Shown piece after piece: positions 34,985-60,298 of a DNA stretch of 64,000 nucleotides. The position numbers and the translations under genes were made by a program. The DNA comes from an uncultured Chloroflexota bacterium (lineage in GTDB: Bacteria; Chloroflexota; Dehalococcoidia; CAUJGQ01): positions 5,556-69,555 of the forward strand of contig CALFMN010000102.1 of the NCBI GenBank assembly GCA_937879875.1, read 5' to 3'. The notes under the pieces are model-generated. The model was given only the letters and a program-made list of their open reading frames with translations. It was not told the origin of the DNA and did no database searches. The stretch's first letter is position 1. Each line of letters begins with the position of its first letter.

Positions 34985-37900
34985 TCACTCGTAGCGCAGC
35001 GCCTCGGCGGGGTCGATGCGGCCGGCCTGCCAGGCGGCGAACAGCGTTGTGCTCAGCGCCGACAGATACGCAACCAGCGCGATCAGGCCGACCTCGCCCC
35101 ACGGTACGCGCAGCGTCAGCTCGCGGAAGTCGTTGGAGAGAAAAACGACGACGTTGCGGGCCAGCACGACACCAAGCCCCACGCCCACTCCGACGCCCAG
35201 CAGCGCGATCAGCGAGACTTCCATCAGAAAGCTCGCCTGCACCCAGCGCCGCCGCAGGCCGATCGCCCGCAGCATGCCGATCTCCTGCCGCCGCTCCACC
35301 ACCGCCCGTGTGCTGATCACGCCCAGCGCTGCCATGCCGGAGACGAGCCCGAGCCCCACGAAGCCTTCGAGCAGGTAGTTCAGCAGCCCGCGTACGGTTT
35401 CGAGATTGCGCAGCCCTTCGCCGACGACGCTCGTCTGCATCCCCTGCAGCGCGAACGAGAGGTCGAGGCCGAGCGCCGCCTGGCTCGGGTCGCGGCCGGC
35501 GCGCGTTTGAAAGTAGAACGAGGTCGGCACCGCGGTCCGCGCCGTGGGTGTCGTCACGTTTGTACGCAGCGTCAGCAGACCAGATGGCAGCGCGTCGCGG
35601 TCGTCCACCACGCCGATGATCGTCAGCCGCAGCGGTTTGCCGCTCGTATCACGCAGCCAGATCGGTTCCGGCTTGAACAGCGCCTCGCCCGGCTTCGGCG
35701 CGTTGATGCCGACCGAGCTGTAGCCCGTGCCGTCCGGCAGACTGCCAAGCGAAACCAGCGCCATGCCGGGCCTGGCCGCCAGCGCGTCCCAGACGGCGCC
35801 GTCCGTGGCGTAGCTGCTGGCGCGAGCGCTCAAGCGCAGCCGCGTGCCGCGCAGCATCCCATCGTCTGCCAGGCGGATCGTCGCAGTATGCCAGCTCGCG
35901 GCCTTGCCCGACGGCTGCACGATCTCGGCCGAGATCGTCGCGTCGCTGCCCACGCCGCTGAACTGGTCGGGCTGCGTCGCCGGCGCGCTCGCCAGCGCGG
36001 CGTTGATGTTGGACAGGTTCGCTCCTTCGGGCGCGGCGGCGCTGATGTCGTAGCCCGCTGGCGGCCGCTCGCGGATCACGTACGCCTGGTGGGCGCTCTC
36101 CAAAAGCACGGCCGAAACGACCATGGTGAAGACGACCAGCGAGAACATCGCCACGGCCATGCCGGTGCGAAAGCGATGCTGCAACGGATAGGCGACGGCC
36201 ATCTTCACCGCCGCCGTGGCCGCGCCGCCGCGCCGCAGCAGCCCCGCCAGGCCTTGCAGCGGCCCGGCGAGATTGAACGCCAGCACGACCACGACGCCGG
36301 CGACCATCATCACACCGGAGAGCGCGAACGTCTCGATGCGGTTCACCGCCAGATGATCGTGGCGCTGGATCCAGAATGGCGGTGGGAACGACCAGAACGC
36401 GGTCAGGCCAACGCCTGCCAGCGTGTACGCCGCGCGCTCGACCGGGCCGTGCGGCAGCCGCGCCAGCAAGAGCAGCCAGCGTACGAGCAGCGCCCCGCCC
36501 AGCAGCGCCAGCGAAACGCCGAGCGCAAAGACCACGTACTGATGCCGCGCGTGGCCGTAGAGCAGTATGAACAGACCCACGCCCGCCGGCACGAGGCCGC
36601 GCACGGTCAACATCGCCGGCAGCGTCAGCAGCGCCTGCGCCCCGCTCAGCAGCAGCCCGGCCGCGCGCCGCCCGCCGCCCGCGCCCAGCGAGCGGAAGCC
36701 GCTGCCCAGCGTCGCCAGCCGCGAGCGCGCCTCGCTCGCCATGCCATCACCGAGCCCTTGCGTGGCCGGAATACCGCGGATCGCCTCGACGATGTTGACG
36801 CGGCTCACGCGCCAGGCCGAGACGAGCACCGTGGCGAACGTGACCAGCAAGCCGAGGCAGAAGGCGATCACCAGGCTGCGCGGACTGACCGTGCCCTGCA
36901 CGCCGATGCCGTAGCCCGCCAGTGCGTGCGCCACCAGCCGCACCACGGCCGCGGCTACGAGCATGCCGACTGCCACGCCCAGCAGCGCCGAGGCGAGGTC
37001 GTAGAGCATGCCCTCGAAGGCGAACGACTGGATCAGATGCGAACGCTGCAAGCCGACCGCGCGGGCGATGCCCATCTCGCCGCGCCGCTCGGCCGCGAGC
37101 ATCACAAAGACGAGGAAGACGAGCAGCAGGCTGGCGGCGATGCTGAACAGCCCCAGCACGAGAAAGCTGCTGGTGAGAATGCTGCCGTACTGGTTCGCCT
37201 GGTCGAGCGCGCTCTGCTTCACTTCGACCACGGTGAGCTGGTTCAGGTTGCGCAGCAGCCGGCCGGCGCGGCCCGCGCGCGTCGGCAGGAACGAGGCGGT
37301 GGCGCGCAGCGTGCCGGCGACCTGCGGATCGCCCAGCAGGTAGATCAGGTGATCGTTGACCTTGCCCTGCTCGACCGTGTGCAGCAGGTCGCGGATCTGC
37401 GCCTGGCCGGGGCCGTTGCGCCGCGCGATCAGGCCGTTGAGCACGCTGCGGCCGTTGCTGCTGTCCAGCACCTGCAAAATCTGCTCGGCGGCGTCGCGGT
37501 TGATCAGCGCCTTGCGCAGATCGAGCGCCGCCTGGCGGCTGCACGAGGCGCCGGCGGAACAGCGGTTGACCACGAGGATCTGGTTGATCTGCCCTGCTTC
37601 GGTGCGCAACTGCTGCATCGCCGCGATCGAGAGGAAGATCGTCGGCTGCGCGCCGGCCAGGTCGCCGTTCTGCACCACCGCGGCGACATTCAGCGCCGTC
37701 GGCGTGGGCGGCGTGCCGGGCTTTGCGTCGGGCGGCGCCAGATAGACCTGCACCTGCTTGCCGGCAGCGCTGGAGAGCAGATCGGCGGCCGCCTGGTTCA
37801 GATAGACCTCGTTCGCGCCGAGCGCCGCGATCTCGCGCGGTGCGCCCGCACGGTCTTTCAACGGCGAGAAGCCGGCGGCCATGTGTGGCGGCAGCGCCAG

Positions 37901-38416
37901 CAGCCCGACGCCGGGGTGGATGAGCTGTGAGCCGGCGTCGGCGGCCGGCGCCTGTTCGAGGATGGCGGGCATCACGCCGGCGATCGCGTGGCTCTTGCTC
38001 GCGGCTGCGCTGACCGTCAGAAACTGGTCCTGGTCAAAATAGGGCGTGCTCACCTGCATCAGTGCGCCGCCCGAGGCCAGGTTGTCTAGGCTGCGGCGCG
38101 TGACCTGCGTGGGATCGTTCAATGAAGCCGTGACCGTCTCATCAACGCGGCCGATGCTGCCGGTGATCAGGGAGCGCACGGTCAGCGTCATCGCGTCGCC
38201 GGTGGAGAAGGCGGTGGCGATCACGACGGTGCTGAGCATCAGCCCGATCACGATCACGACCGAGCGCAGCGGCCGGCGCGCGGCATTGCGCAGCCCCAGT
38301 TTCAGCAGCGTGCGCCGCCGCAGCGCGATCAGCCCGAGCACGCCGAGCACGAGCGCCGAGAGCGCTACCAGCACCCGCGCCAGTTCCGTGGTTGAGACGC
38401 CGAACAATGAATCCAT
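34985..38416 (-). CDS. ABC transporter permease with two FtsX domains (MacB/YbbP-like)
   Basis: 1143 aa. N-terminal TM segment plus a large periplasmic region, then two 4-TM FtsX blocks (...ERRGEMGIARAVGLQRSHLIQSFAFEGMLY... and ...ERRQEIGMLRAIGLRRRWVQASFLMEV...). No ATPase gene is adjacent. Confidence 0.85.
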   Translation of the reverse strand: MDSLFGVSTTELARVLVALSALVLGVLGLIALRRRTLLKLGLRNAARRPLRSVVIVIGLMLSTVVIATAFSTGDAMTLTVRSLITGSIGRVDETVTASLNDPTQVTRRSLDNLASGGALMQVSTPYFDQDQFLTVSAAASKSHAIAGVMPAILEQAPAADAGSQLIHPGVGLLALPPHMAAGFSPLKDRAGAPREIAALGANEVYLNQAAADLLSSAAGKQVQVYLAPPDAKPGTPPTPTALNVAAVVQNGDLAGAQPTIFLSIAAMQQLRTEAGQINQILVVNRCSAGASCSRQAALDLRKALINRDAAEQILQVLDSSNGRSVLNGLIARRNGPGQAQIRDLLHTVEQGKVNDHLIYLLGDPQVAGTLRATASFLPTRAGRAGRLLRNLNQLTVVEVKQSALDQANQYGSILTSSFLVLGLFSIAASLLLVFLVFVMLAAERRGEMGIARAVGLQRSHLIQSFAFEGMLYDLASALLGVAVGMLVAAAVVRLVAHALAGYGIGVQGTVSPRSLVIAFCLGLLVTFATVLVSAWRVSRVNIVEAIRGIPATQGLGDGMASEARSRLATLGSGFRSLGAGGGRRAAGLLLSGAQALLTLPAMLTVRGLVPAGVGLFILLYGHARHQYVVFALGVSLALLGGALLVRWLLLLARLPHGPVERAAYTLAGVGLTAFWSFPPPFWIQRHDHLAVNRIETFALSGVMMVAGVVVVLAFNLAGPLQGLAGLLRRGGAATAAVKMAVAYPLQHRFRTGMAVAMFSLVVFTMVVSAVLLESAHQAYVIRERPPAGYDISAAAPEGANLSNINAALASAPATQPDQFSGVGSDATISAEIVQPSGKAASWHTATIRLADDGMLRGTRLRLSARASSYATDGAVWDALAARPGMALVSLGSLPDGTGYSSVGINAPKPGEALFKPEPIWLRDTSGKPLRLTIIGVVDDRDALPSGLLTLRTNVTTPTARTAVPTSFYFQTRAGRDPSQAALGLDLSFALQGMQTSVVGEGLRNLETVRGLLNYLLEGFVGLGLVSGMAALGVISTRAVVERRQEIGMLRAIGLRRRWVQASFLMEVSLIALLGVGVGVGLGVVLARNVVVFLSNDFRELTLRVPWGEVGLIALVAYLSALSTTLFAAWQAGRIDPAEALRYE

Positions 38417-38419
38417 ACG

Positions 38420-39172
38420 TTACTTCGCCGAGTCGATCGCCTGCCAGAACAGCTCGGCGAGGCGGTTATAGCCGGCGCTCGTGGGGTGCAGGCCGTCGGC
38501 GCTGACCAGGCCGGCACGCTCCTTTGCATCCTTCACGTCGCCCCAGGCGATGTAGATGTCGACCAGGGTTGCACCCTGCTCGCCGGCGATGCGGGCGATC
38601 GTCGCGTTCCAGCTCCGCACCAGGCCATCGAGCGCTGCCGGATCGCGGCCGTTGAAGGCGGGCAAGAGGCGCAGATCCGGCAGATTGCCGACGAAGAGCT
38701 TCGCGCCCGTCTGCCGCAGCCCGCTCAGCACGCCGGTCAGGTTCGCCGAGAAGGCGTCGAGCGAGACGTTCTGCTCGATATCGTTGACACCCAGCCAGAC
38801 GGCGGCCAGCGTCGGCGCCGTGTCCTGCGCGACCGGCAGCTCCTGCTCCTCCGCCTGTTGCGCGGTCGCCCCGCTGATGCCGAGGTTCACCACGCGGCTG
38901 CCCGAAGGCAGCTTCGCACCGAGCCGCGCTACCCAGTTGTCCGAATCCGGATTCGTGGCGCCGATGCCGACCGCGTCCGAGGCGCCGATCGCCACCAGCA
39001 CCTGCGCGTGATCGCTGCTTGCCGGAACCATCGATGAGGCCGGAGCGCTCGCCGCCCGGCAGCCAACCAACAGCACGCACAACGCGACGAAGCCGACCAG
39101 GCTCGCCTTCACCACACCACCCACACCCGCACCCCGGACCTGCGCCCTTCGCCCTCCGCCCTCTGCCCTCAT
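38420..39172 (-). CDS. SGNH/GDSL hydrolase family lipoprotein
   Basis: Lipobox-like LLVGC, block I IGASDAVGIGA, block III GVNDI and block V DGLHPT. The stop lies 3 nt before the FtsX permease ATG. The exact start is uncertain (39172, or GTG codons near 39110). Confidence 0.8.
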   Translation of the reverse strand: MRAEGGGRRAQVRGAGVGGVVKASLVGFVALCVLLVGCRAASAPASSMVPASSDHAQVLVAIGASDAVGIGATNPDSDNWVARLGAKLPSGSRVVNLGISGATAQQAEEQELPVAQDTAPTLAAVWLGVNDIEQNVSLDAFSANLTGVLSGLRQTGAKLFVGNLPDLRLLPAFNGRDPAALDGLVRSWNATIARIAGEQGATLVDIYIAWGDVKDAKERAGLVSADGLHPTSAGYNRLAELFWQAIDSAK

Positions 39173-39275: not shown

Positions 39276-39617
39276 ATGAAGGTTGCAGTACAGGTTTCCT
39301 CCTCTTGCCCGCACCGCGAGGCCACGCTCGACGCGGTCAAGGCTGCCATGGCCGAGGCCGGCATCGCGGGCGAGCCGCAGGTCGTGAGCGTGGGCGACTA
39401 TGAGCAGGCGAAGGCGCTGCGCTGCTTCGGCAGCCCGACGGTGCGCGTGGACGGCGTGGACGTGGAGTACGGCGACCGCGAGCCGGAAGAGTTCACCACC
39501 GGCTGCCGCTACTACAACAGTCCGGACGGCTGGGTGCCCGTGCCGCGCAAAGAGCTGGTGCTGCGCGGCATCGACACGGCGAAGCGCCGGGCTGAGCGCG
39601 CGGCGAAGCCTTCGTAG
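39276..39617 (+). CDS. Small thioredoxin-fold-like protein (hypothetical)
   Basis: 113 aa, high GC3. The pattern MKVAVQVSSSCPH...GSPTVRVDGVDV resembles small thioredoxin/glutaredoxin-like proteins. The assignment is tentative. Confidence 0.45.
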   Translation: MKVAVQVSSSCPHREATLDAVKAAMAEAGIAGEPQVVSVGDYEQAKALRCFGSPTVRVDGVDVEYGDREPEEFTTGCRYYNSPDGWVPVPRKELVLRGIDTAKRRAERAAKPS

Positions 39618-39795: not shown

Positions 39796-41490
39796 CTATT
39801 CGTCCGGGTACAGGTCAGACGCACGCGAGCGCGACCGCTCGCCGAAACCCTCAACCCAGCGCTCGTAGTTCTCCGGGCCATACGTTTCGGGCCTGACCAC
39901 GATCGGCATCGGCACGGCGTGGCCCAGAATCAGCGCCTGCTGCTTTGAATCGAGCCGCGCCAGCACCTCGCGCAGGCCGCTCTTGCCGGAGACGCCGGAG
40001 AGCACCGCGTCCACGTCGCGCTCGTTGTCCAGCAGGCAGCTCACGCGCGTGCCGAGCTGCGACATGACCTCGCTCTCGATCGCGCTCGGGCGCTGGTCGA
40101 TGACCAGCAGCGTGACGTTGTACTTGCGCATCTCCCGCGCGATCTGGCCGAAGATCGTCTGTCCGGCCACGCGCGGGTCGAGGAACTTGTGCGCCTCCTC
40201 GATCGTAATCATCAACCGGATCGGCTTCTCGCCCTTCTCGCCCAGCGCTTTCTCCACCAGGTCGCGGTACTTTTCGTGGATGCGCCGCGTCAGTACGTTC
40301 GCCACCAGCATATAGCTGTCCAAATCGTTACCGAAGCGGCCGAACTCGATCACCACGCTCTTGCCGGCGAGCAGCGAGCCGAGGATGGCGTTGAGCGAGG
40401 CGGCCGGCGCCCGCTCAACCAGGAACGGCTTGTTGCGCAGCAGCTTGTTCAGGCCGCGCTGCAGATTGCGTACCGTGGCGACGTGGATCGCAAGCTGGTT
40501 GAGCAGTGGCGTATCGTCGCTGTCCTCGTCCATGCTCAGATCGAGCGCCTGCTTCAGCCAGCCGTCGCGGAAGCGCGCCTGCAAGGCGTGACAGGCGTCC
40601 ACCGAGTTTTGTGTGAGGTTCAGCGTCTCCGCCAGCAGCGCGATGTCCTCGGCGTCGATCTCGTTGTGGCCGATCGTCACGGCCGAGTCGTACTTGACGC
40701 GCCGGCGCCGCGAGCTGTCTTCGTCCAGCGTGTAAACGACGACGGACGACGGCACGAGTTGCTTCAGCCCCTTGACCGTGCCGCCCGCGCCCTCGTAGCT
40801 GCCCTCCCAGCCGTACTCGTTGTGCATGTCGAACACGAGATGTACGGCCTTCTTCTTCGCCTCGCGCTGCGCGTTGCTCTTCTGGATCACGTTCAGCAGC
40901 ACGAGCCGGGTCAAGAACGTCTTGCCGGTGCCGCTCTTGCCGAAGATGCCGTTGCTGCGCTCGACGAAGCGCTCGTAGTCGAGCCGGACCTTGACCTCCA
41001 TATCGAGCGGCGTGCCGATCACAAAATGCTCCGCATCTTCCTCGCCGAAGATGCGCTCGACCTCGGCCTGTGTCGCCTCACGCACGCGCGAGAAGTGGCC
41101 GGGGACGGTCTTCACCGGCTCGGGCGCGTTGTTCTCGATCGCCGAGACGCGCAGCATCGGCGTGATGTGCAGCACGGCGAAGGCGGCGGTGCCGCGGTAG
41201 ACCTCGCGCAGGAACTCGTCATCTTCGCCCGGCGGCGTTTCGGTGAGCGCGGGCAACGTCGTTTTCAGCTCCACGTCCGTGATCATGCCGAAGAAGAGCT
41301 GGTCGCGCGCCTCGACCGTGACGTAGCGGCCGGCCGCCATCTCCTCGACGTCCACCTCACCGTCGAGCCGTACCTCGAGCCCGCCGGTGAGCGAGCCGCC
41401 GACCACCGAGCCGAGCGACGAAAAGATCTGCGGCCGGTCGAGTTCCACCAGCGAGAGCACGGGGCGTCCGTCGGTGCCGTGGCCGTTCAT
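39796..41490 (-). CDS. herA: HerA-like (DUF87/FtsK-HerA superfamily) ATPase
   Basis: ATG at 41490 follows GGAGGA and overlaps the upstream stop (ATGA). N-terminal HAS-barrel-like segment (LGSVVGGSLTGGLEVRLDGEV...GRYVTVEARDQLFFGMITDVEL). Walker A GIFGKSGTGKTF, Walker B/DEAH-like LMITIEEAHKFL and LLVIDQRPS. Confidence 0.85.
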   Translation of the reverse strand: MNGHGTDGRPVLSLVELDRPQIFSSLGSVVGGSLTGGLEVRLDGEVDVEEMAAGRYVTVEARDQLFFGMITDVELKTTLPALTETPPGEDDEFLREVYRGTAAFAVLHITPMLRVSAIENNAPEPVKTVPGHFSRVREATQAEVERIFGEEDAEHFVIGTPLDMEVKVRLDYERFVERSNGIFGKSGTGKTFLTRLVLLNVIQKSNAQREAKKKAVHLVFDMHNEYGWEGSYEGAGGTVKGLKQLVPSSVVVYTLDEDSSRRRRVKYDSAVTIGHNEIDAEDIALLAETLNLTQNSVDACHALQARFRDGWLKQALDLSMDEDSDDTPLLNQLAIHVATVRNLQRGLNKLLRNKPFLVERAPAASLNAILGSLLAGKSVVIEFGRFGNDLDSYMLVANVLTRRIHEKYRDLVEKALGEKGEKPIRLMITIEEAHKFLDPRVAGQTIFGQIAREMRKYNVTLLVIDQRPSAIESEVMSQLGTRVSCLLDNERDVDAVLSGVSGKSGLREVLARLDSKQQALILGHAVPMPIVVRPETYGPENYERWVEGFGERSRSRASDLYPDE

Positions 41491-42083
41491 GGCTGGATCC
41501 TCCGCAGGATGGCTTGCAGGCGCGTGGCGTCGTCCGCGAGCAGCGGCGTGAGCGCCTTGCCCGAGTGCACGAGGAAGCCGCGGCGGTCGGGCTGCGCGGC
41601 GGCCGCCTGGCGCAGCGCGGAGGCGATCACGTCGTCGGCAAAGACGCCGCCGGCGAGCAGCAGGCGCAGAAAGTCGAACGAGCGCATGAAGGCGGCGCAT
41701 TCGTCGTCGGTGCAGCCGCGCACCCGAGCGAGCATCGGCGCCGGCGCGGACGGCAGGTATTGACAGACGTTGCCGGCGCGCTTATGGCCGACGACGACGG
41801 CGTCGAACGTCGTGGCAAGCAGCGCCGGCACGTGCGGATTCTCGTCGAGCACGCGCTGCAGGTCGTGCTCCGGCTCGCCGCGGGCGGTCACGCGCCGCGT
41901 CGGGTCGATGCCTTCGGTCAGCACGCCGCAGACGACCGCGAAGACCGGCTCCTCCATGTCCTCGACCGCGACCAGCAGCCCCAGCGGCGGCGCGCCGTCG
42001 CGTGCAAAGCACTCGGCGCTGAAGCGATCGATCGAAGCGCGAATCACGCGGCCGTAGCGGGTCGGCGGGGCAGATGCGGTCAT
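41487..42083 (-). CDS. Uncharacterised protein (198 aa) with HAS-barrel-like N-terminus, coupled to herA
   Basis: ATG at 42083 follows AGAGGAA. Alternative start at 42113. N-terminus YGRVIRASIDRFSAECF....PPLGLLVAVEDMEEPVFAVVCGVLTEG resembles the HerA N-terminal barrel pattern by eye only. The C-terminal half appears helical. I recognise no family. Confidence 0.55.
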   Translation of the reverse strand: MTASAPPTRYGRVIRASIDRFSAECFARDGAPPLGLLVAVEDMEEPVFAVVCGVLTEGIDPTRRVTARGEPEHDLQRVLDENPHVPALLATTFDAVVVGHKRAGNVCQYLPSAPAPMLARVRGCTDDECAAFMRSFDFLRLLLAGGVFADDVIASALRQAAAAQPDRRGFLVHSGKALTPLLADDATRLQAILRRIQP

Positions 42084-42123
42084 CTTCAATTCCTCTGCGG
42101 TCCCCACCGGCATTCGTGGCTCG

Positions 42124-42504
42124 TCATTCCTTCGGCCGCTTGAAGAAGAGCAGGCCGTTCCAGGGATTGCCGACCATCTCCCAGCCCTGCTCGCCCAGAT
42201 CCGCGATCGCGGCGAGCACAGCGTCCGGCTCGGCGACGTTCTGGTCGCGGTCGCCGAAATCGGAGATCAGCTCCGGGCCGTCCTTCGTCAGCCAGACGCA
42301 GCGCGGGGACGCCGTTCTGAACGCGCCCGCGGTATCGCCGGCGATGCCGGAGAGCAGCACGTACTCCCAGGCCAATGTCTCGCCGTCGTCGCCCTCGTCG
42401 TCCTCGTCGTAGTCGTCCATCTCAGGCTCCGGCTCGTTCTGCTGCTGCGGCTGGACCGCCCAACCGGACTGCCGCTCGCGCTCGGGATTGATGTCGCGTT
42501 TCAT
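42124..42504 (-). CDS. DUF4177-like small protein with poly-acidic N-terminal region
   Basis: C-terminal LAWEYVLLSG...VLAAIADLGEQGWEMVGNPWNGLLFFKRPKE fits the DUF4177 pattern (WEYK...GWELV...FKR). It is preceded by EPEPEMDDYDEDDEGDDGE. Start at ATG 42504 or GTG 42540. Confidence 0.5.
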   Translation of the reverse strand: MKRDINPERERQSGWAVQPQQQNEPEPEMDDYDEDDEGDDGETLAWEYVLLSGIAGDTAGAFRTASPRCVWLTKDGPELISDFGDRDQNVAEPDAVLAAIADLGEQGWEMVGNPWNGLLFFKRPKE

Positions 42505-42539
42505 ATGAACCGCCGTCTCTTCAGCGTGCGCCGGGGGCA

Positions 42540-42577
42540 CCTAACCCTGACCTGGCTGAAGCCAGGTCAGGGTTAGG
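42540..42577. repeat. Perfect 17-bp-stem palindrome (CCTAACCCTGACCTGGC-TGAA-GCCAGGTCAGGGTTAGG)
   Basis: Read directly from the sequence. It lies between nurA and the DUF4177-like gene. The 18-mer GGGGCACCTAACCCTGAC (42534-42551) is identical to 59986-60003. Confidence 0.9.
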
Positions 42578-42585
42578 CCGCCGTT

Positions 42586-43836
42586 TCATATCGCCCGCAC
42601 CCGCTTGCTCAGCGCTTTGGACGAGGTTAGCCAGGGGATGCCGTACAGCTCGCATTCGCGCGCGATCAGCGCGGAGAAGGCCGCGCGGTCCGTCGTCGAG
42701 ATCACCGCCTGCTCGTGCGCCTCCTGCAATGCGACCGGATAGTTCGCGCCGCTCTGCGCCTGGTGCACCAGCAGCGCGTGCAGCAGATCCAGACGCCCTT
42801 TCTCTTCCGCCATCCAGACCGGAAGTTCGACGCGGGCGATCTCGTCGCCGGCGCGCAGGTAGAAGAAGGCGATCTCGTGCCCGGCCTCTTCATACCACTT
42901 CTCCGCCGTCTGCGCGTGCGGCGACCGGTACGGCTTGAACACGGCGCTGCGCTGCCACGGCTCCAGCAGATGCCGCATCAGTTCCGCGTCGTGCGGCAGG
43001 CCCGCGGCGTCGCAGGGCCGTTCGCCCGTCTCGCGGCCGGGGCACGAGGCGCAGACCACGCGCTCGCCCAGCGGGCAGGCCAGCAGCCGCAGGCTGTGGA
43101 CGACGTTGCCGGCCCGCGTTTGGCTGACGTAGCCGCTGAACACGGCGCGCCCTGCCTCGACGAGCGCCTGCAAGCGATCGAGCGCCTGCAGCGTGCCGTG
43201 TTCGCCCGTCTTGAGCTGCTCCGCGATCGAGGGCGGCAGGTCGCGCTTGTCCAGGTTCCAGAGCGCGAGGTTGCCGTCCACCAACGCCAGCAGCGGCCGG
43301 TCGCTCGGACAGTAGTACTCAGCCAGCTCGGCCAGCTTTGCTAGCTCGCGCACGCCGCGCACCACACCCAGCACCGCGCCGAGGATCGCACTCTCGCGGC
43401 TGGGGTCCTGTGCGTCGCGCAGCACAATCTCGCCGCCGGTCGGCTGCACGTCGACGTCGGAATCGGGGATCGCGTCCGGGCCGTCGCCGTACTGGATCAG
43501 CATCCAGCCGAAGTTGAGCACGAAGCAGTCGACCGGCAGGTGTCGGTCCACGTCGATGCTGGACCCGTCCACGGCCAGCGCCGCGTAGGCCGCGGGCGGC
43601 TCCGGCGCGGGCACGCCGCGATCGAGCCGTCCGCCGTCCGGCGCGAACGGCAGCGCCAGCGTCCACGAGGTCTTTGCCGAAAGCATGCGCCGCTCGAACC
43701 ACGCGGGATCGTCTGCCGCTCTGCGCAGCAGCGTCAATGCCTGCGCGAGCCGCGCTGCGCTCTGTCCGCGTTCCTCGCGGGCGCGCTCCACCAGCTCGGG
43801 CAGGCGGGCGGCGACTTTGACCAGATCCAGCGTCAA
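42586..43836 (-). CDS. nurA: NurA-domain nuclease
   Basis: TTG start at 43836 follows GGAGGGGG (7-nt spacer) and overlaps the selB TGA (TTGA). Contains ALAVDGSSIDVDRH, LALVDGNLALW and ANYPVALQEAHEQAVIS, which fit the NurA catalytic D/E/D/H motif pattern. Confidence 0.7.
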   Translation of the reverse strand: MTLDLVKVAARLPELVERAREERGQSAARLAQALTLLRRAADDPAWFERRMLSAKTSWTLALPFAPDGGRLDRGVPAPEPPAAYAALAVDGSSIDVDRHLPVDCFVLNFGWMLIQYGDGPDAIPDSDVDVQPTGGEIVLRDAQDPSRESAILGAVLGVVRGVRELAKLAELAEYYCPSDRPLLALVDGNLALWNLDKRDLPPSIAEQLKTGEHGTLQALDRLQALVEAGRAVFSGYVSQTRAGNVVHSLRLLACPLGERVVCASCPGRETGERPCDAAGLPHDAELMRHLLEPWQRSAVFKPYRSPHAQTAEKWYEEAGHEIAFFYLRAGDEIARVELPVWMAEEKGRLDLLHALLVHQAQSGANYPVALQEAHEQAVISTTDRAAFSALIARECELYGIPWLTSSKALSKRVRAI

Positions 43837-45717
43837 CGCACGACCCCCTCCGGGCTGCGCAGCACGCGCTCGTCGCCCACGCGACGGGTCACGCGCCGGT
43901 CGTCCAGATGCTCGAGCAGCGCCTGCGCGTAGCGGCGGCTGGTGCCGAACAAGTCGCGCACCTGCGCCAACGTGATCGTCGGTTGCTCCCGCAGGTGCGC
44001 GAGGATACGGTCCACCATCTGCCGATACGCCGCCGCGTCGAAGACGATGCCCTCGGCCACGGGCACGACAGCGCCGCTCTCGGCCAGATAGGCGATCAGC
44101 TCGCGGTCCGGCAGGCGCTCCGGTGCGGGCGCGTAGGGATTCGCCCGCAAAGCGGCGAGGAAGCGATCGGCCTCCGCCTGCTGCGTCGCTGCGAGTGTGA
44201 CCTGGTGATCGGCCGGCGCCACCGTGGCGCCGCGCTCACCAAGGTCGCCATGCGCCAGCCAGCGCTCCAGCAGGCTGCCAAACAGGCGCGGATTCAAGCC
44301 GAGGCGGCTCTTCAACTCCTCGCGCGGCATGCCGGCGCGCAGTGGATGCTCTTTGAGGAAGGCGGTCACGGCAGCCAGCGCGCGGTCGGTGAGGCGCTGA
44401 TAGCCCGCGAGGGTATACAGCGCCGTGTTCGGTCCTGGCATCTCGCCGCCGACGAGCACGGCGCGGCCCTCAGCCAGCAAAGTCGCCAGCGCGGCGCGCA
44501 CGCCCTCGGCGCCGAGGCTGGTTTCGCGCACCAGCACGTCCAGCGTGGCCGGCTCCTGCCGCGCAAGCACCTCGGACAGGCTCTCTTCGGGTGTGCCGCG
44601 CTCCAGCGAGGCGAGCGAGGCGAGCGTGGCTTCGTGCCGGCGGCGATGGCGGCGGGCGTGCACATCCACGATCGTGCCACCGCCCAGCGTCTCGTTCGGC
44701 GAACGCAGCACGAAACTGTCGCCCTTCGCCACGGCCACCGGCTCGAACAGGCGGACTTGCGCCCAGCCTTCGGCGCCCGCAGGCAGTTCGTCGGCATCGA
44801 GCAGCCGCACGCGGGCCGGAGCCTCGGCCGCGCCGGTGTGAAACGTCGTCTGCGCGTTATGGCGCAACGGATGGGTGGCATCGCCCGTCATACGCAGCCG
44901 CACATCCACCGCGCTGGTTGGCGAAAGCCAACCGGGCGTGGTCAGCACGAGGCCGCGGTGCAGATCGTCCGTGCCGACGTTGCCCAGGTTCACCGCCGTG
45001 CGGCTGCCGGGCTGTGAGCGCTCGACCTTGTGCTTGTGCGATTGCAGACCCCGTACGCGCGAGCGCAGGCTGCCTGGCTCGACCACGATCTCCTGCCCAG
45101 CGCGCAACACCCCATCGATCAACGTGCCCGTGACGACCGTGCCGAAGCCGGCGACGCTGAACACGCGGTCGATCGCCAGCCGCGGCCGGCCGATGTCGCG
45201 TTTCGGTTCCGTCTGCGCGAGCGCGGCTTCGAGGGCGGCGAGCAGCTCCGTCAGACCCTCGCGCGTGACGGCGGAGCAGGGGATCAGCGGCGCACCGGCC
45301 AGGCTGGTGCCCTCCAGCGTCTCCGCCACGTCGGCCTGGACGAGTTCGAGCCAGTCGGGCTCAACCAGATCGGCTTTGGTGACGGCAACGACGCCGGTCT
45401 TGATCTGCAGCAGATCGAGGATGGCGAGGTGCTCGCGCGTCTGCGGCATCACGCCTTCGTCCGCCGCGACGACGAGCAGCGCGATGTCGATGCCGCCGAC
45501 GCCGGCCAGCATGTTCTTGATGAAGCGCTCGTGCCCCGGCACGTCGACGATGCTGACCTCTTCGCCGCCCGGCAGCTTGAGCCAGGCGAAGCCGAGGTCG
45601 ATCGTCATGCCCCGCTCCTTCTCCTCGCGGAGCCGGTCGGGGTCGATGCCGGTGAGCGCCTGCACGAGCGTCGATTTGCCGTGATCGACGTGGCCGGCGG
45701 TGCCGATGACATACATG
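43833..45717 (-). CDS. selB: Selenocysteine-specific translation elongation factor
   Basis: Start at ATG 45717. G-domain motifs [17 protein letters not shown] and TKADL, followed by beta-barrel domains. The C-terminal winged-helix repeats end ...[37 protein letters not shown]. Confidence 0.9.
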
Positions 45718-59985: not shown

Positions 59986-60298
59986 GGGGCACCTAACCCT
60001 GACTTCGCAAGCGAAGTCTGTCCCTTCCCGAGACGGGTAAGGGACTCCTGGAGCGTTCCATACACTGAGCGACGGCAGCGGAGCCGGGGAACCCTGAGGA
60101 GGAGTGGGCGAGCGGCCTCTGTCGCAGCGCACTATGTCTCCAGCGGACACTGACCGCCGTCATGCGCTCCAGCCAGCTTCGTCTCCCGAGAGGACATCCC
60201 ATCTCGCTCCCCTCGCTCACTGGCCGGAGCGCTCCAGGAGTCCCTTCCTGCGTCGGGAAGGGACAGCTTTCGCAAGCGAAAGCAGGATTGGGTGCCCC
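59986..60298. mobile_element. MITE-like / REP-composite element with ~70-bp imperfect terminal inverted repeats
   Basis: The left arm (59986-60055) and the reverse complement of the right arm (60230-60298) align at about 80% by eye. Each arm contains two sub-hairpins (CTTCGC-AA-GCGAAG / CTTTCGC-AA-GCGAAAG, and TCCCTTCC...GGAAGGGA). The ~170-bp core has no credible ORF. The element sits between the convergent korB and amidohydrolase genes. Confidence 0.6.

Follow-up and report, generated by a model that had tools for sequence, protein, structure and literature searches.

To our knowledge, the two-gene versions of Deinococcus and Thermus are the only bacterial NurA-HerA systems that have been studied, and we know of no earlier case, among FtsK-HerA or F1-like ATPases, in which the crown barrel is a separate and obligatory polypeptide. 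In archaeal complexes the HAS ring of the HerA hexamer carries a docked NurA dimer (PMC12977600); in the archaeal and the bacterial enzymes the HAS-barrel ring of the hexamer is both the DNA exit and the platform on which the NurA dimer docks (PMC9960219, PMC12977600). The 64-kb window analysed here (the whole stretch of 64,000 nucleotides from contig CALFMN010000102.1 of an uncultured Chloroflexota bacterium) carries nurA and herA on the minus strand with two further genes in between, as was remarked in an earlier note on this DNA. One of the two encodes a protein of 198 amino acids (aa), called HASp below, which is a stand-alone HAS barrel. We consider it fairly likely that the locus is a NurA-HASp-HerA three-gene module, typical of Chloroflexota and mainly of Dehalococcoidia, in which HASp binds HerA and which serves a vertically inherited DNA-processing function; HASp is probably an undescribed third subunit.

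As in the pairs of Deinococcus radiodurans (DR_0836/DR_0837) and Thermus thermophilus, a NurA nuclease and a HerA ATPase are co-encoded on the chromosome of the Chloroflexota bacterium with their catalytic motifs intact. All features of the cluster lie on the minus strand at the positions given by the earlier note, every motif that it quoted is present, and nurA and herA are genuine. The nurA gene (42586-43836, minus strand, 416 aa) matched the Pfam NurA model above its cut-off (E = 1.1e-18). Its product contains AVDGS (residues 88-92), LVDGNL (185-190) and YPVALQEAHEQA (366-377), and the key D, G, S, E and H residues of these motifs, D90, D187, E372, H374 and E375 among them, are invariant in 44 orthologues. 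The herA gene (39796-41490, minus strand) encodes a HerA-family ATPase of 564 aa, recognised by the Pfam models DUF87 (E = 8.6e-25) and HAS-barrel (E = 2.1e-7). Like the Deinococcus and Thermus HerA proteins, it combines a HAS barrel (residues 27-100) with a RecA-like core, and its motifs GKSGTGKT (Walker A), IEEAHKF (with the Walker B-like IEEAH) and IDQRPS are nearly invariant in 58 orthologues. The NurA motifs, the HerA domain set and the same-strand co-encoding of a NurA-HerA pair were all found. The locus differs from the Deinococcus and Thermus pairs in three respects: its proteins are very distant in sequence, its NurA carries an insert with four cysteines, and a third conserved gene, HASp, lies in between and appears to be translationally coupled to herA. 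By sequence, neither the NurA protein nor its profile reached any PDB (Protein Data Bank) chain, and the HerA profile did not reach D. radiodurans HerA there at E <= 0.01. The four cysteines of NurA (C254, C262, C265 and C275) are invariant in a short insert of the orthologues of this clade and may form a zinc or iron-sulfur knuckle; such a motif is not known to us from the NurA proteins that have been studied.

The archaeal mre11-rad50-herA-nurA systems (Sulfolobus solfataricus, 4D2I; Thermococcus kodakarensis, 9X1L/9X1M) resemble the present one in that HASp has its best structural match in T. kodakarensis HerA-NurA. They differ from it in that here the operon partner is selB, mre11 and rad50 being absent from the cluster in the window; a barrel-only extra subunit is not described for archaeal HerA-NurA. 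A precedent for an extra gene between nurA and herA is provided by the nurA-csm6-herA clusters of Pyrobaculum (cited in PMC12977600; PMC3396285). The inserted gene of Pyrobaculum encodes the CRISPR-associated Csm6, unlike that of the window, which encodes a HerA-derived barrel protein; no CRISPR element was found near nurA-HASp-herA.

HASp (41487-42083, minus strand) was characterized from a structural model, Foldseek, a family profile and gene linkage. Its N-terminus had been likened by eye to a HerA-type HAS barrel, and this guess was correct. The AlphaFold2 (AF2) model built from the family alignment has a predicted local distance difference test score (pLDDT) of 93.7 and a predicted template modelling score of 0.89; it consists of an N-terminal beta-barrel (residues 9-123 approximately) and a C-terminal helical domain (about 126-196). 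Compared with the PDB by Foldseek, the model gave 50 listed matches, each of them a HerA chain, in alignments of 126-158 columns; they include HerA chains of T. kodakarensis, S. solfataricus and D. radiodurans and of the SIR2-HerA, DUF4297-HerA and TdpAB entries, and the best of the 50 was T. kodakarensis HerA-NurA (E = 5.9e-7, probability 1.00). The Pfam HAS-barrel model (PF09378) was matched by 30 of the 60 HASp family members tested (E <= 0.1, best 2.7e-9), and a comparison of profiles (hhalign) aligned the HASp family colinearly, if weakly (E = 0.0037), with the N-terminus of the HerA family from the adjacent gene. HASp is identified as a stand-alone HAS barrel on the basis of the model, the HerA-only Foldseek list, the Pfam matches and the profile-profile match. 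By itself, the HASp protein of the window had no Pfam match at E <= 1 and no NCBIfam or PADLOC match, and the family profile yielded noise only (E >= 0.7) against PDB sequences. That the C-terminal helical domain might derive from the helix-bundle domain of HerA was not supported (hhalign against full-length HerA, E = 0.3).

HASp therefore has the fold described by Pfam for the crown barrel of HerA and of F1-type ATPases. The ATPases of these two kinds that were compared have the barrel as the N-terminal part of their own chain; HASp, in contrast, is a separate polypeptide with a helical C-terminal domain of its own, and the ATPase encoded next to it retains a barrel as well. The extra subunit is in effect the NurA-docking domain of HerA in stand-alone form. 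Full-text searches of the literature did not find a barrel-only HerA partner described.

The HASp family is large. A word-indexed search yielded 51 relatives, constant in length, and their profile retrieved 1065 representative clusters (50% identity) at E <= 1e-3, 749 of which were at E <= 1e-10; family members measure about 190-215 aa, and APPLG, T56, R63, P83 and LL-T are invariant in the alignment; DPxRR, LPPxP and RLxAILRR are likewise counted among the invariant motifs. More than 1000 'hypothetical protein' clusters thereby gain a name and a fold. The sources with names are almost all Chloroflexota, mostly Dehalococcoidia, the exceptions being one Bipolaricaulia protein and two short contigs binned as Thermoplasmatota and Acidobacteriota. 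The earlier note had suggested looking for co-occurrence with nurA and herA across Chloroflexota, Actinobacteria and Deinococcota; no actinobacterial or Deinococcota source was present among the named ones. One might take the 198-aa open reading frame (ORF) for a functionless product of the decay of a herA duplicate, or for a gene-calling artefact, as HASp resembles the N-terminal part of HerA alone and the window protein has no Pfam match. This reading is refuted by the conservation of HASp, which forms more than 1000 clusters with constant length and invariant motifs, is modelled very confidently over its full length and is kept as a gene at identities down to about 35%. Among the representatives from the profile search, one protein of 372 aa (P0171) has the C-terminal part of NurA and a complete HASp within one reading frame, either as a genuine fusion or through read-through in gene calling.

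We mapped five proteins of the window onto 65 related loci, six found by exact-protein look-up and 59 in GTDB species representatives; the latter were retrieved with a 10-sequence alignment and are biased toward relatives with the APPLGSLV or CYEL motifs. The three closest relatives of the window (L066, L067 and L068) and a fourth locus (L070) were counted apart. All 61 loci with enough downstream DNA have herA as the gene next after HASp, and HASp was retained in loci down to about 35% identity. In the window the herA ATG overlaps the HASp stop codon (ATGA), an overlap already pointed out in the earlier note and read directly in the sequence; a 4-nucleotide (nt) overlap between the HASp stop and a candidate start codon of herA is present in 40 of 56 loci, suggesting that the two genes are translationally coupled and that HASp and HerA are made in roughly equimolar amounts. 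The linkage to nurA is looser. Of the 65 loci, 47 have an upstream nurA on the same strand, at 300 nt or less from HASp in 31 and farther away in 16, and one locus has nurA on the opposite strand. The invariant unit is HASp-herA, and the usual unit is nurA-HASp-herA, of three genes and not four. The possibility that both intercalated ORFs are lineage-specific, poorly conserved insertions had been raised as a check on the proposal: it does not apply to HASp, but the gene for the acidic protein (see below) is indeed lineage-specific. Our direct observations are the protein identities, the HASp fold, the strictness with which HASp is linked to herA and the range of named sources in which it occurs.

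Strict linkage to herA, compared with loose linkage to nurA, suggests that the primary partner of HASp is HerA. The converse arrangement, in which HASp imitates the docking platform of HerA as a decoy, binding NurA and keeping the nuclease inactive until HerA engages, is very unlikely in our opinion. NurA docks on HAS barrels in the solved complexes (PMC9960219, PMC12977600), HASp is such a barrel and its gene lies between nurA and herA, as this arrangement would have it; it is at odds, however, with a herA linkage of 61/61, mostly with overlapping codons, when nurA is adjacent in 31 loci, distant in 16 and not seen upstream in 10. Where nurA is distant, the gap between nurA and HASp contains RAYT/IS200-like ORFs, a glutaminyl-cyclase-like ORF, an HNH protein or a HicA-like protein. 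This gap is an insertion hot spot in related genomes (L008, L009, L011-L015 and L055, just upstream of HASp; also L018, L020 and L004); in L004 a methyltransferase gene lies between HASp and a truncated herA.

In the mechanism that we propose, NurA is the nuclease and HerA the ring ATPase/translocase, and HASp would be a non-catalytic subunit, composed of a HerA-type HAS barrel and a small helical domain, co-translated with HerA and bound to it in about equal amounts. HASp is regarded as HerA-bound because it has the same fold as the docking platform and is always encoded with herA. Most likely it would act on that face of the HerA ring which is formed by the HAS barrels, or mimic this face, and would adapt or gate the coupling of the nuclease to the motor. 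The role of the module would be a chromosomal, vertically inherited one, most simply DNA-end processing for repair. If HASp is stoichiometric, the accepted 2:6 architecture is altered, and the protein offers a natural handle on nuclease-motor coupling or gating, in a three-gene version kept by a large and environmentally abundant bacterial class. More tentatively, HASp may form a ring of its own or enter the HerA crown, as a second HAS-barrel tier that would be the true platform for docking or gating of the NurA dimer (NurA2-HASp6-HerA6); we view this extension as possible, though rather doubtful. Were it true, a three-tier NurA2-HASp6-HerA6 machine would be standard in a whole bacterial class.

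HerA-family hexameric motors also work with effectors in anti-phage systems (SIR2-HerA/Nezha, DUF4297-HerA, TdpAB), and both HASp and the HerA of the window match the HerA structures of these systems. The module could accordingly be an anti-phage or anti-plasmid defence device, in which the HerA motor drives a nuclease effector as in DUF4297-HerA or SIR2-HerA and HASp is a sensor or a regulator. The best NCBIfam and PADLOC matches of HerA are anti-phage HerA models, and its best PDB sequence matches include defence HerA proteins; the gap between nurA and HASp gathers genes of mobile or toxin type (RAYT-like, HNH, HicA-like), and archaeal HerA-NurA has been proposed to destroy foreign DNA (PMC12977600). 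The score of the window HerA with NCBIfam HerA_antiphage is nevertheless far under the cut-off (72 against 800 bits), and no SIR2, DUF4297 or TdpB effector is present. PADLOC recognised HerA alone, NurA, HASp and the acidic protein giving no match. The neighbours across the related loci are selB, SecDF, glutamate dehydrogenase or aconitase, and this housekeeping synteny is kept among loci whose HASp identities range from 35% to 86%, a sign of vertical inheritance. HASp was absent from the 72,556 plasmid records and 50,697 phage records searched, and no further defence gene was seen in the flanks in the window or in related loci. We therefore consider a defence role unlikely, and prefer a vertically inherited chromosomal DNA-processing function to a mobile defence cassette because of the housekeeping synteny, the lack of plasmid or phage copies, the weak anti-phage scores and the invariant catalytic motifs.

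Several points weigh against a HerA-bound HASp acting in DNA processing. HerA has a barrel of its own, which leaves no evident reason for a second one. In 10 of the 65 loci, 5 kb or more of upstream DNA showed no nurA, so that HASp-HerA may also work without an adjacent NurA. The C-terminal helical domain of HASp has no detectable relative, and the protein is near neutral (isoelectric point about 6.1), thus giving no charge-based hint of DNA binding. In the PDB, the HerA profile scored alike with archaeal 4d2i (7.7e-23) and SIR2-HerA 8wiv (about 7e-23), and HerA similarity therefore cannot separate repair from defence; what bacterial NurA-HerA does in the cell is in itself a matter of dispute (PMC9960219). 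Finally, the binding of HASp to HerA, its stoichiometry, the binding face and the biological role are what we infer rather than observe.

The second intercalated gene (42124-42504, minus strand) encodes an acidic protein of 126 aa from its ATG, as defined from the ORF, an alignment and a model; an alternative, longer GTG start at 42540 would fall within the palindrome described below. The protein contains the run EPEPEMDDYDEDDEGDDGE in a disordered N-terminal part of about 45 aa (charge -12.5), followed by a folded C-terminal domain in which three strands, a helix and two strands form a small alpha/beta fold (AF2 pLDDT 75 overall, about 90 for residues 46-124). A search among 5.8 billion clusters returned 8 homologous clusters only (58-85% identity), and the alignment of nine sequences has 50 invariant columns, a pattern that marks the ORF as a real, constrained gene. 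The C-terminus had been described as DUF4177-like; neither the protein nor its C-terminal 85 aa matched Pfam at E <= 10, NCBIfam likewise gave no match to the protein, and DUF4177 (PF13783) was matched by one of nine family members at E = 0.11, a faint hint at best. Foldseek searches of PDB and BFVD returned no significant match (best E = 0.1, with KCTD H1 domains, and E = 0.034), leaving the suggestion of a DNA mimic, and likewise that of a phage origin, unsupported.

The earlier note proposed a four-component NurA-HerA machine, in which the acidic protein (a DNA mimic or a regulator) and the barrel protein are both integral. In the three closest relatives the acidic gene sits between nurA and HASp and the order selB-nurA-acidic gene-HASp-herA is kept; in L067 the start of the acidic gene overlaps the nurA stop. 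The constraint on the protein fits with such a role, and its acidic tail could suit the ionic NurA-HerA interface of D. radiodurans (PMC9960219). However, none of the 65 related loci carries the gene, and neither does L070, in which HASp shares 63% identity with that of the window and the nurA-HASp spacing is 97 nt. The few homologues of the acidic protein, its lack of a significant fold match and the presence of unrelated genes in the same gap in other lineages further oppose the four-component machine, which we hold to be decidedly unlikely. Because it is absent elsewhere and because unrelated genes occupy the same gap in other lineages, the acidic gene is a recent, lineage-restricted arrival, inserted between nurA and HASp in a single narrow clade, and the conserved module remains nurA-HASp-herA.

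The intergenic hairpin at 42540-42577, between nurA and the acidic ORF, had been reported as a 38-bp perfect palindrome. Its position and the complete complementarity of its 18-nt arms were confirmed, but 36 of the 38 bases are paired, the two central ones being unpaired. Folded as RNA it has a minimum free energy of -50.8 kcal/mol (z = -6.6 compared with shuffled sequences), and it is the sole perfect hairpin of such size in the 64-kb window. A terminator scan called none at this site; the stem is present but the 3' flank is GTGCCCCCGG, without a T tract. At the corresponding site the genes of L067 leave no intergenic space, a different hairpin, of 12 nt, occurs in L066, and no hairpin was found in L068 or L070. 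A conserved regulatory element was rejected on these grounds: the palindrome is specific to this genome and lies outside the conserved system. It opens with a 17-nt motif, GGGCACCTAACCCTGAC (42537-42553), which has a single further copy in the window, a partial one at 59987-60003, about 17 kb away, which also precedes short hairpins; the palindrome may thus be an element like the repetitive extragenic palindromic (REP) sequences. The Rfam scan of the whole window gave zero matches at gathering scores.

Five co-directional genes on the minus strand span 39796-45716: selB, nurA, the acidic ORF, the 198-aa ORF and herA. The first of the string, selB (43833-45716, minus strand), encodes the selenocysteine-specific elongation factor. 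It was recognised from its ORF, from tblastn identities of 53-66% to the SelB genes of related loci, and from the Pfam SelB domains of the orthologues of L002, L005, L006, L066, L067 and L070; the TTG start of nurA overlaps its stop codon (TTGA, 43833-43836). Linkage of selB to nurA was observed in about 17 loci across Dehalococcoidia, down to about 35% HASp identity, and was also noted in L066, L067 and L070. A selenocysteine elongation factor and a DNA nuclease make a strange operon pairing.

Several distant loci share a small Zincin_1 (PF06262) gene, located a few kb downstream from herA and on the other strand (L001, 11547-11912; L002, 10828-11214; L003, 12809-13174; L005, 13228-13590); it was not found at the corresponding position in the window. 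There, herA is followed by ORFs of 113 aa (39276-39617, plus strand), 250 aa (38420-39172, minus strand) and 1143 aa (34985-38416, minus strand). The counterpart of the 250-aa ORF in L067 has GDSL-lipase Pfam domains, and the order of the three genes downstream of herA is identical in the window and in L067.

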